Assembly (NCBI GenBank): GCA_038065795.1
Contig: JBBTQG010000056.1
Span: forward strand, 1 to 36,893
Direction of reading: 5' to 3'
Origin: Patescibacteria group bacterium
GTDB lineage: Bacteria > Patescibacteriota > Minisyncoccia > UBA6257 > HR35
DNA length: 36,893 bases
The notes below the pieces were generated by a model that was not told where the DNA came from, made no database searches, and worked only from the letters and a program-made list of their open reading frames with translations. Below, piece by piece: positions 11,456-31,481 of the stretch. The translations under genes were made by a program, and so were the position numbers. How positions within the stretch are numbered: position 1 is the stretch's first letter; each line of letters opens with the position of its first letter.

Positions 11456-11485
11456 AATTTAGCGAAGCAAACAAATTCTCCTCGA

Positions 11486-11659
11486 TCACCCCAGTCGACT
11501 CGCTCCAGCGGCTCGTCGCTGCTCATCTCTCATCCTGCCGACCGAGTTGTTAATTTGAAAAAATGCCGAAAACAATTTATTGTTTTCGGCGCTGAAAATT
11601 ATAAATTTTCAGCATTTTACAGCTCGGACCAATCTCGGCAGGACTACGAGGCGTGCTCC
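11486..11659. repeat. GC-rich structured element (family 1) carrying a nested twin-hairpin element
   Basis: The core halves 11486-11546 and 11623-11659 align with 29343-29450. They are interrupted at the apical loop by about 76 nt that contains the twin hairpin 11565-11613. Confidence 0.75.
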
Positions 11660-11718
11660 TGATTCACTTGAATACGGGGCTTTTTTTATTTATAAATTTT
11701 TGATATAATATATTTATT

Positions 11719-29165: not shown

Positions 29166-30098
29166 ATGTTCTACAAAAAATCATTGGGGCAACATATATT
29201 ACACGGAGAAGGAATTTTGAAAAAGATTGCTGGGGCGTTGGGGGATATTGGTGATGAGATTGTTGTTGAAATTGGAGGAGGCACAGGCAATTTGACTGGT
29301 TTTTTGGTTAATAATATTTTTTTGCATACAACTTTTTCTCAGTCATCGCAGTCGGTTCGCTCCAGCGGCGAACCGCTGCTCATCTCTCACCCCGCCGACT
29401 CCTCGCTAACGCTCGGAGACCAATCTCGGCGGGGCTACGAGGCGTGCCCTCAAAAAAGTTGTATACAAAAAAATACCAAAAAACTTATGGTCTATGAATT
29501 GGATAATGATTTGGCGGAGTTGCTGAAAGGTAAGTTTCCGGATGCTGAAATTAAAAATGAAGATTTTTTGCAGGCGGATTTAGCTCAATTCAAAAATAAT
29601 TATCTCTTGATTGGCAATATTCCATATTTTATTACTGGACAAATTTTGCGAAAAGTTTTTACATTAGAAAATTATCCCAAAATAGCTGTTTTTACAATTT
29701 CAAAAGAACAAGGTGAAAAATTTCTATCCGTTCGCTCCGCTCAGGGTAAAGTAAGTGGAAGTTTTTGGAGTAATTGGATTAAAGTTTGGGGAAAAGTTGA
29801 AAAAGTTTGTACAATAAAAGCCAGTTCATTCTTCCCCCCCCCGAAAATTGATTCAATAGCGATAAAAATAAATTTTTATAAAAAACCAATAATTTCAGAA
29901 CCAGAAAATTTTGTAAAATTTTTAAAAATTATTTTTAACCGTCCCAAGCAAACAACTGTCAATAATTTAAAAGGCGCGTATGGGAATGAGGGTGTTAAAA
30001 AATTTATAGAGGAGTTGGGAACATTACGACCCCACCAACTAACATTTGAACAGGTTTTGAAGTTGTATGGAGCAATGACGAATAAAAGGTTAAAATAA
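29166..30098 (+). CDS. rsmA: 16S rRNA dimethyladenosine transferase RsmA/KsgA with a ~53-aa repeat-derived insertion
   Basis: SLGQHIL, VVEIGGGTGNLT and GNIPYFITGQIL motifs. Residues ~51-103 are encoded by the GC-rich element. Confidence 0.8.
   Translation: MFYKKSLGQHILHGEGILKKIAGALGDIGDEIVVEIGGGTGNLTGFLVNNIFLHTTFSQSSQSVRSSGEPLLISHPADSSLTLGDQSRRGYEACPQKSCIQKNTKKLMVYELDNDLAELLKGKFPDAEIKNEDFLQADLAQFKNNYLLIGNIPYFITGQILRKVFTLENYPKIAVFTISKEQGEKFLSVRSAQGKVSGSFWSNWIKVWGKVEKVCTIKASSFFPPPKIDSIAIKINFYKKPIISEPENFVKFLKIIFNRPKQTTVNNLKGAYGNEGVKKFIEELGTLRPHQLTFEQVLKLYGAMTNKRLK
29317..29473. repeat. GC-rich structured element (family 1) inserted in frame in rsmA
   Basis: A 21-bp AT-rich inverted repeat (29317-29337 versus 29453-29473, 1 mismatch) brackets the 108-nt core 29343-29450. 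That core aligns over its whole length with the reverse complement of 31346-31453. Confidence 0.85.
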
Positions 30099-30985: not shown

Positions 30986-31059
30986 TGACCCCAACCGGAT
31001 TTGAACCGGTGTTCTCAGCTTGAAAAGCTGATGTCCTAACCAAACTAGACGATGGGGTC
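30986..31059 (-). tRNA. tRNA-Glu (anticodon TTC)
   Basis: Acceptor GACCCCA/TGGGGTC, anticodon stem TCAGC/GCTGA with loop TTTTCAA, T arm ACCGG-TTCAAAT-CCGGT. Confidence 0.85.
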
Positions 31060-31102: not shown

Positions 31103-31257
31103 GCGTCTATTTCCTCAGGCACCGGCGGTTCTCGTATTCCAGCGATTCGATCCCGCCTCGTGTCTCGGCGTCACAACCCAGCCGTAATTTTGAAAAGAAT
31201 TATACGGCTGGGACCAAGCTTGCGACGCCTCCGACACGTGCCTTCGGAAATAGACGC
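31103..31257. repeat. Long GC-rich imperfect hairpin (~155 nt) next to tRNA-Glu
   Basis: Base stem GCGTCTATTTCC/GGAAATAGACGC (12 bp), then GGCAC/GTGCC, CGTGTC..GGCGTC/GACGCC..GACACG, and apical CCCAGCCGTA/TACGGCTGGG with an AT-rich tip. A side branch runs GGCGG...CCGCC. Confidence 0.7.
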
Positions 31258-31320: not shown

Positions 31321-31481
31321 ACATTATACGCGAATATGTTTTATAAGGGCACGCCTCGTAAGTCTTGCGAGATTGGTCTCCGAGCGTTAGCGAGGAGTCG
31401 CAAGACTGAGAGATGAGCAGCGGTGAGCCGCTGGAGCGAACCGACTGCGGTGACCGAATAAAGTATATTCGCGCATAATAT
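31321..31481. repeat. GC-rich structured element (family 1), intergenic copy in reverse orientation
   Basis: The core 31346-31453 is the reverse complement of the rsmA copy, with differences concentrated in paired positions. It is flanked by a 17-bp imperfect inverted repeat (31321-31337 versus 31465-31481). Confidence 0.85.

Follow-up and report, generated by a model that had tools for sequence, protein, structure and literature searches.

An in-frame palindromic element in the rsmA gene of a Candidate Phyla Radiation bacterium, most likely read through as a disordered loop

A structured insert lies in frame within rsmA

The window analyzed here is the whole of contig JBBTQG010000056.1 (assembly GCA_038065795.1; C56 below), 36,893 nucleotides (nt) from a groundwater bacterium of the Candidate Phyla Radiation, whose genome of 581 kb has a GC content of 32%, is 99.6% complete and lies in 56 contigs. 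We describe a GC-rich palindromic element that sits in frame within the rsmA/ksgA gene of this window, which encodes an rRNA methyltransferase. Its parts are listed below; matches to its core were scored with a covariance model, R1, which covers the core only (118 positions, 35 pairs).

29166..30098, + strand: rsmA/ksgA open reading frame (ORF), 310 aa plus stop; ORF list, Pfam, Protein Data Bank (PDB), 20 invariant residues.
29299..29308, + strand: host-gene flank GTTTTTTGGT, codons G-F-L-V, pairing perfectly with 29475-29484; inverted-repeat search and fold.
29315..29337, + strand: left outer arm TATTTTTTTGCATACAACTTTTT; inverted-repeat search, 96% complementary over 23 nt; each copy in the element family has arms of its own.
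29316..29474, + strand: 53 extra codons, I51-N103, stop-free; orthologue comparison, and AlphaFold predicted local distance difference test (pLDDT) of 39-50 over residue blocks 51-100.
29338..29451, + strand: conserved GC-rich core forming a three-way junction, 114 nt; R1, 134 bits, and covariation.
29348..29379, + strand: core hairpin P2, GCAGUCGGUUCGC-UCCAG-CGGCGAACCGCUGC, with conserved loop CUCCAGCGG; helices 2 and 3 are 94-96% paired and all pairs covary.
29380..29389, + strand: conserved unpaired junction UCAUCUCUCA; invariant in all 8 of 8 copies from the same genome, with CUCUC retained in other genera.
29390..29434, + strand: core hairpin P3, with a conserved asymmetric loop, ACCAAUC at 29419-29425, and a tip that varies; helices 5 and 6 are 97-98% paired.
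29453..29475, + strand: right outer arm AAAAAGTTGTATACAAAAAAATA; inverted-repeat search.

The insert is 159 nt long, that is 53 codons with zero stops, and encodes IFLHTTFSQSSQSVRSSGEPLLISHPADSSLTLGDQSRRGYEACPQKSCIQKN between VVEIGGGTGNLTGFLV and KKLMVYELDNDL of RsmA. The resulting loop is rich in Ser, Pro, Arg and Gly, and peptides derived from it include SSGEPLLISHPADSSLTLGDQSR and GYEACPQK. GC content is 50-53% over the insert versus 23-39% in its flanks. The + strand folds at -75.7 kcal/mol (z = -8.3, equaled by 0 of 200 shuffles) and the - strand at -88.8 kcal/mol (z = -10.5). The arms are separated by 115 nt, and beyond them positions 29475-29484 (ACCAAAAAAC, codons T-K-K-L) pair perfectly over 10 nt with 29299-29308, the stem thus reaching into rsmA proper; codons with T-runs and A-runs similar to these flanks are found at the empty site of relatives. 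Identical AAT codons (N50 and N103) border the insert, and the TA found at either end of this copy is part of the palindrome and ambiguous as a target-site duplication. The initial annotation had placed a GC-rich structured element of about 53 stop-free residues (I51-N103) in frame at this point, which ORF, GC content and fold bear out. Its layout also stands, with arms of 23 rather than 21 nt and a core of 114 rather than 108 nt.

Searches with Rfam 15 returned no relevant family over the whole window at the gathering threshold, and no intron or ribozyme match over 29200-29600 even at E = 10; over 15 loci related to the element they returned one tRNA and otherwise no match.

The enzyme around the insert is conserved

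Apart from the insert, RsmA looks like an ordinary member of its family. It belongs to the RrnaAD family (Pfam PF00398, E = 1.4e-23), matches KsgA structures in the PDB (3ftc/3r9x, E = 1.5e-22) and contains S-adenosylmethionine (SAM) motif I (E-x-G-x-G-x-G), an acidic residue at the end of strand 2 and the catalytic N-(L/I)-P-Y. All 20 columns that are invariant in an alignment of 37 homologues are retained, including E35, G37, G39, G41, E111 and N151-P153-Y154. The AlphaFold2 model has a mean pLDDT of 84.3, a predicted template modeling (TM) score of 0.80 and 214 residues at 90 or more, while residues 49-103 form a low-confidence coil. The best Foldseek matches of this model are the KsgA structures 3ftf, 1qyr and 3tpz, with target-normalized TM scores of 0.82-0.87. 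A search of the genome for a second rsmA found none.

In class I methyltransferases, helix A and strand 2 are connected on the sheet edge that is opposite to the SAM pocket and the substrate loops. By analogy, the inserted loop would leave the domain away from SAM and from the cleft for helix 45, and the earlier description of the insert as close to the cofactor site would hold in sequence but not in the fold. The same description called rsmA/ksgA essential; the gene is universally conserved, yet laboratory strains of E. coli do not strictly need ksgA.

The insert is fixed in the population. At least six contigs from independent assemblies of several samples carry the identical insert, arms and junctions, and the three full-length 310-aa population variants differ by single substitutions elsewhere only. 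An exact-motif search gave 7 matches among public metagenome contigs, all from one Hainich H43 population at 99.9% identity, and 0 among public genome contigs. One population contig, P0039, ends within the rsmA element (...EACPRRI); repeats of this kind break short-read assemblies and may explain why such a small genome lies in 56 contigs. Elsewhere in rsmA, a run of nine C at 29835-29843 (TTC CCC CCC CCG, the ‘FPPP’ of the conserved F-x-P-x-P motif) is a potential slippage-prone tract in this 32% GC genome, and variant P0041 has FPTP instead of FPPP there.

Orthologues have an empty site or shorter inserts

RsmA was present in 53 of the 61 genomes searched, the window's own included. In the 60 relatives, RsmA matches cover query residues 3-48 and 104-305, and these two segments are contiguous in the relatives' own DNA. 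The linker at the insert site is only 2-3 residues long in 24 orthologues of the same family and about 30 of the same order (family orthologues align as ...LTQFLT-xA-KKLIVYEID), and Aquifex KsgA (3ftc/3r9x) likewise aligns on either side of the insert, to residues 3-49 and 99-263. Two orthologues (L034 and L040) have 5-15 extra residues at the site. These alignments indicate that the connection between helix A and strand 2 tolerates variation in length, and since rsmA apparently carries a 53-residue insert there, it is a permissive site.

The two closest metagenomic orthologues, P0002 (313 aa, locus L060) and P0003 (286 aa, locus L061), are 52-57% identical to RsmA (62% and 58% in a larger multiple alignment) and have 20-30 extra residues at the same site. 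In P0003 the insert is an 81-nt hairpin with perfect 16-nt arms, AGCGATCAACCTTTCT and AGAAAGGTTGATCGCT, and a 33-nt center; by eye, its inner arm resembles the arms of the rsmA copy (CAACCTTTCT versus CAACTTTTTCT). R1 gave no match to the P0002 and P0003 inserts, whose DNA has weak colinear similarity to the element (p about 0.04 and 0.014, respectively). The resemblance is suggestive of decayed remnants of the same kind of element rather than of a native peptide. It likewise suggests that the insertion predates the split of this lineage from those of P0002 and P0003, in which it would later have decayed to shorter loops. The comparison with close relatives and the structural model that the initial annotation had proposed as checks thus give a consistent picture: the insert is absent from relatives with a 2-3 residue linker, the model shows a confident KsgA fold with the insert as an excluded low-confidence coil, and a native homologous peptide in orthologues was not found, the P0002 and P0003 inserts being shorter and hairpin-like.

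How the element entered rsmA was considered from its arms. That they are an inverted duplication of the target was rejected for rsmA, as neither arm is present in orthologues. Insertion into a pre-existing short palindrome, GTTTTTTGGT...ACCAAAAAAC, is possible.

RsmA varies in length at a second site as well, where the gene may hold the remnant of another insertion:

29726..29752, + strand: possible remnant of a second, older insertion, tccGTTCGCTCCgctcaggg, peptide LSVRSAQGKV; second indel-variable RsmA site, shared 9-mer.

The DNA of this small insert (...CGTTCGCTCCGCTCAGGG...) has the 9-mer GTTCGCTCC in common with the P2 hairpin of the element. This 9-mer occurs 8 times in the genome versus about 0.8 expected from a composition estimate; four occurrences lie in recognized copies, and those outside them include C9:14581, C13:20734 and C45:664. 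The shared sequence suggests that this second site is permissive too and keeps what is left of an earlier insertion. In P0002 (L060 6320-6365) and P0003 (L061 1412-1455) the second variable site holds CGCG-rich mini-repeats, AATCCGCG... and GTCCGCGTAA..., which encode 7-13 extra residues and resemble a different small repeat.

The insert is one copy of a dispersed element

A scan of the genome with R1 found 13 copies, plus remnants. The rsmA element (157 bases) is 84-90% identical to copies on contigs C37, C17, C3 and C56. All copies in the genome have a common anatomy: a copy-specific outer stem, P2 with loop CUCCAGCGG, the unpaired CUCAUCUCUCA, P3 with ACCAAUC and a variable tip, and a closing CUACGAGGCGUGCC. 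The arms, 15-30 bp long, close a core of 110-120 nt, and those of the rsmA copy are unique to it. Long variants have about 80 nt extra at the tip of P3. This tip module, seen at 11543-11621 of the window, at C32:19871-19949 and C13:30370-30449 and in a copy on C9, holds two AT-rich hairpins, GCCGAAAACAATTTATTGTTTTCGGC and GCTGAAAATTATAAATTTTCAGC, and apparently represents another small repeat that has inserted into the element.

Four further copies lie in genes, which were identified with Pfam among the evidence. The copy in tgt (C32) is in frame and read in the same register as in rsmA, that in argS (C9) is in frame, in the sense orientation and of the long variant, and that in rnhB (C44) is antisense with the frame still open. 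In pheT (C21) there is an in-frame fragment or remnant.

Beyond this genome, a BLAST-level search for the element in 24 family relatives found no match, and only the covariance model exposed an order-wide family. Among 400 other genomes of the order, 68 gave full-length R1 matches (E from 1e-7 to 1e-18), covering 65 of 251 genera, and among 400 genomes sampled over the rest of the phylum only 6 gave matches; 332 of the 400 order genomes and 23 of the 24 family relatives had none. From other genomes we retrieved 109 copies for analysis of layout and frame, and all 109 share the layout. Their outer stems are again copy-specific (median 18 bp, 92% complementary), with arms unrelated between most copies and the innermost 5-8 bp common within subfamilies. 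Unpaired motifs are conserved: CUCCAGCGG, CUCUC, ACCAAGCU and CCGAGAC. Across 81 sequences, in an alignment that was itself fitted to the model, 92.4% of paired cells are complementary versus 59% after shuffling (about 40% with slid partners), and double changes occur in 835 cells versus 230.

Mean core identity is 0.78 within a genome, 0.70 within the same family and 0.65 between families, with bursts of near-identical copies (0.9-1.0) in some genomes; from this pattern, recent spread and old copies both exist. In mnmA, which encodes MnmA, a recurrent host described below, families f22 and f24 have homologous arms, as do members of f17, with compensatory changes. By this comparison, and by the homologous arms of the IscS-like copies described below, some old copies look vertically inherited. 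One genome, G117, illustrates variation of the stem. Its six copies (L118, L133, L135, L158, L169 and L178) have cores that are 78-95% identical, and each has a different, perfectly complementary mid-segment of 8-12 bp in its outer stem, bracketed in four of the six by CACTCGCT on the left and AGCTCGC on the right. CTCGCT occurs on both sides of some of these copies; elsewhere there is no consistent direct repeat.

Copies in genes keep the reading frame

A copy was counted as genic where at least 50 residues of an ORF lie on either side. By this measure about 25 of the 109 retrieved copies are genic (20 sense, 4 antisense and L087). All of them are stop-free and a multiple of three in length, and all keep the downstream frame, in phases 0, 1 and 2 and in both orientations. 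In any one frame, only about 50-65% of cores lack a stop. Given this expectation and the added requirement for a multiple of three, about 30 of 30 frame-preserving genic copies are not due to chance, and this is the chief argument that the rsmA insert, like the others, must be translatable. The same regularity is the chief argument against removal at the RNA level, because removal would impose no constraint on frame.

Split genes were also sought among the 85 remaining copies. In no case did a pair of flanks match one ORF of the window's own genome (BLASTP; 58 informative loci), and in 17 copies checked by eye the flanks belong to separate genes, each complete (Ddl/DnaG, GlyA/FolD and MurC among them). 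Among the 109 copies and the 13 in the window's own genome, there is no genic copy that breaks a frame.

Certain host sites recur. One site in MnmA is occupied in ten genera, nine times in sense and once in antisense orientation; Tgt of other genomes carries the element in the same region as in this genome; and one site in an IscS-like desulfurase is occupied in two genera. Further hosts are LepA, RecG, a phosphoglucomutase, an aminotransferase, membrane glycosyltransferases and ComF. Pfam identified one MnmA, one Tgt and one IscS-like copy, LepA, RecG, the phosphoglucomutase and the aminotransferase; the remaining host identities were assigned by alignment or by eye. At the IscS-like site the core (1501-1613 in each locus) is in sense orientation in L098 (genome G336) and antisense in L085 (G292). 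The outer arms of these two copies are homologous and in the same orientation, and the ORF is open either way, so that the core appears to have flipped in place through recombination between the inverted arms. Homologous host sites have unrelated peptides. Because every frame and either orientation is in use, what selection preserves is the open frame and not the peptide.

Strand symmetry and candidate mobilizers

If the sense-strand RNA were the selected form, G.U pairs should far exceed A.C. Neither core nor arms had this signature: core helices have 27 G.U versus 35 A.C among 3067 Watson-Crick cells, counted in the same model-fitted alignment, and arms have 30 versus 85. Stems of almost exclusively Watson-Crick pairs, together with tolerated antisense copies, point to maintenance of a palindrome at the DNA level rather than to selection on a sense RNA. 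Template-switch correction of quasipalindromes and gene conversion are established mechanisms, and either would maintain such palindromes. Orientation favors that of the host or upstream gene, with 21 sense versus 4 antisense genic copies and about 56 versus 13 intergenic ones, a bias that could arise from the direction of transcription or replication.

The genome encodes two paralogous Y1 HUH transposase-like genes (Pfam Y1_Tnp; THIHF/THIHL, RYIHLNP), at C10:10400-11125 (+) and C49:2848-3594 (-). Each adjoins a perfect palindrome of its own, TAACCAACCACACCCGACGGGTGTGGTTGGTTA and TAACCCAAAAATGTACGCCCGTCGGGCGTACATTTTTGGGTTA, and the contigs of the two genes contain no copy of the element. These genes and palindromes look like a separate system akin to repetitive extragenic palindromic (REP) sequences and their RAYT transposases. 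Y1_Tnp was matched in 19 of 51 element-positive versus 11 of 51 element-negative genomes (11/21 versus 3/21 in a first batch, 8/30 versus 8/30 in a second), and 63% of element-positive genomes have no match. A Y1/RAYT transposase is therefore unsupported as the mobilizer, the association over 102 genomes not being significant.

The insert is probably a tolerated loop

Taken together, the insert is most likely read through and tolerated as a disordered surface loop, and is best read as a selfish element that resembles the Rickettsia palindromic elements (RPEs). The palindrome would have integrated where the DNA encodes the short link from helix A, which follows the GxGxG SAM motif, to strand 2. 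The ribosome would translate straight through the 159 nt, since these 53 codons contain no stop, and produce RsmA with a disordered loop of 53 residues; this would exit the domain opposite the cleft for SAM and helix 45, leaving the enzyme functional. We infer both that the insert is actually translated and that the loop is harmless. Of the three outcomes first proposed for it (a tolerated surface loop, an inactivated gene or removal of the segment from the RNA), the loop is the one favored by the invariant residues, the AlphaFold and Foldseek results and the open frames across the family.

Several observations weigh against this interpretation. A low pLDDT means that the loop is unmodeled, not that it does no harm. 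Within the mRNA, a hairpin of -72 to -76 kcal/mol could delay the ribosome or be a target for RNase III. The intact frame is a weaker proof of function because ksgA is dispensable in laboratory E. coli, and variant P0001 has Asn in place of the nearly invariant Asp133 (NEDFL to NENFL). Finally, it is the core that is conserved over family-level divergence and not the peptide, a pattern for which a model of a purely passive passenger does not account.

This last point leads to the alternative that the element functions at the level of nucleic acid, as a DNA or RNA signal for a conserved trans-acting factor or a cis-acting element in mRNA fate, and is selected within the coding sequence. Such a function is compatible with read-through and opposes only the notion of a merely selfish passenger, the peptide loop being its price. 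It would account for a core sequence and three-way junction conserved in 65 genera, for the conserved unpaired motifs and strong covariation (92.4% versus 59% paired, 835 versus 230 double changes), for the same host sites being occupied across families, with homologous MnmA arms and compensatory changes, and for the bias in orientation; that the peptide shifts phase and strand between copies also places selection elsewhere than on the protein. Set against this are the 332 order genomes and 23 family relatives that do without the element, the sister lineages in which it has apparently decayed while the host gene is retained, the mobile-element-like bursts of near-identical copies, the persistence of antisense copies, and G.U pairs no commoner than A.C, contrary to a sense-strand RNA as the selected form. 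On balance we regard a nucleic-acid function as unlikely. In a related and still doubtful proposal, the core would be a functional module, most likely a DNA folded on either strand, recognized by a putative conserved factor, either a host protein or a recombinase of a new type that targets hairpins. If so, the module has been kept within the genes for MnmA, Tgt, the IscS-like protein, RsmA, ArgRS, RNase HII, LepA, RecG and other housekeeping proteins since before family-level splits, and the element family is also a recurring source of lineage-specific protein insertions in Candidate Phyla Radiation bacteria.

The remaining alternatives are much less probable. The segment might be removed or skipped, by intron-like excision at the base of the stem or by ribosomal bypass from AAT (N50) to AAT (N103); the long perfect closing stem would juxtapose the junctions, the element is structured and conserved, identical codons border it, and rRNA genes of the Candidate Phyla Radiation carry insertions that are excised. 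However, length and stops would then be unconstrained, and yet about 30 of 30 copies are in frame in four different readings. Antisense copies (rnhB, L085, L109, L153 and L155), which are unable to form the same RNA, are tolerated, no intron or ribozyme model matched, and 159 nt far exceeds bypass gaps such as that of T4 gene 60, about 50 nt; we consider removal or skipping very improbable. About as improbable, or slightly more so, is that the insertion inactivated rsmA and left a decaying pseudogene or a non-functional protein. The insert does lie between SAM motifs I and II, E. coli tolerates the loss of ksgA, and one variant has D133N, but the ORF is full-length at 310 aa, with all invariant residues and a confident fold of both domains. 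The insert moreover appears old, given the related hairpin inserts in orthologues that are 52-57% identical, and its frame is still open; population variants differ by single substitutions only; and the element also occurs in argS and pheT, which cannot be dispensable. An assembly chimera, in which a dispersed repeat was mis-joined into rsmA, would fit with the break of population contig P0039 inside the element. This possibility, raised at the outset, is negligible: the independent assemblies agree on insert, arms and junctions, the arms are unique to the rsmA copy, and the length is exactly in frame.

On the favored interpretation, a universally conserved rRNA methyltransferase apparently carries 53 residues, foreign and disordered, between the first and second of its SAM-binding motifs, and the phenomenon of in-frame palindromic elements extends beyond Rickettsia. 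A structurally conserved element would occupy coding sequence in about one-sixth of the genomes sampled from the order, and its decayed, shorter versions in sister lineages would be a concrete route to lineage-specific loops in the proteins of reduced genomes. The consequences for annotation and phylogenomics are inflated protein lengths, split Pfam matches and broken assemblies.

Relation to known repeats

RPEs are short palindromes, repeated in a reduced and AT-rich genome, that occur in frame in many housekeeping genes (PMC10969869). The parallel with them, drawn when the insert was first noticed, is sustained by its repeat origin, its 84-90% identical copies and the orthologues that lack it. 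Either kind of repeat is palindromic, about 100-150 bp long and found in small, AT-rich, reduced genomes, with in-frame as well as intergenic copies; both add a peptide segment judged compatible with the fold, and neither has an evident transposase. The two, compared here by description, also differ. The hosts here are of another phylum, in an order of the Candidate Phyla Radiation/Patescibacteria, and where an RPE family has one conserved peptide in a single frame, the present core uses phases 0, 1 and 2 as well as the antisense orientation, with no peptide conserved. Its arms are copy-specific rather than conserved terminal repeats, its core is a three-way junction with heavy Watson-Crick covariation in 65 genera, and it reuses host sites across families (MnmA ten times, Tgt, IscS-like). 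In the library of papers searched, none dealt with in-frame palindromic elements in the Candidate Phyla Radiation or Patescibacteria.

[quoted passage not shown] Unlike them, it has no conserved terminal inverted repeats, no clear target-site duplication and about a quarter of its copies inside genes. REP/RAYT systems differ further in that the Y1 genes of this genome adjoin other palindromes and Y1 genes are not significantly associated with the element. In yeast mitochondria, mobile GC clusters and ‘byp’ elements are GC-rich hairpins that spread in a very AT-rich genome and into protein-coding genes, where byps disrupt the reading frame and the ribosome passes over them. By contrast, all genic copies of the present element keep the frame and need no bypass, and they are 3-5 times longer. 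RNase III-processed intervening sequences and group I/II introns are likewise structured inserts in conserved genes, with a long stem that juxtaposes the junctions; here no intron or ribozyme model matches, and universal frame preservation is the mark of a translational constraint.

Other copies in the window

Besides the copy in rsmA, the window holds three intergenic copies:

11467..11675, + strand: long variant, intergenic, 3' of a co-oriented ORF; sequence similarity and R1.
31114..31245, + strand: diverged copy, intergenic; R1.
31339..31464, - strand: intergenic copy, 85% identical to the rsmA copy; sequence similarity and R1.

The latter two, in opposite orientations, are neighbors and lie immediately past a tRNA gene (30986-31059, - strand).

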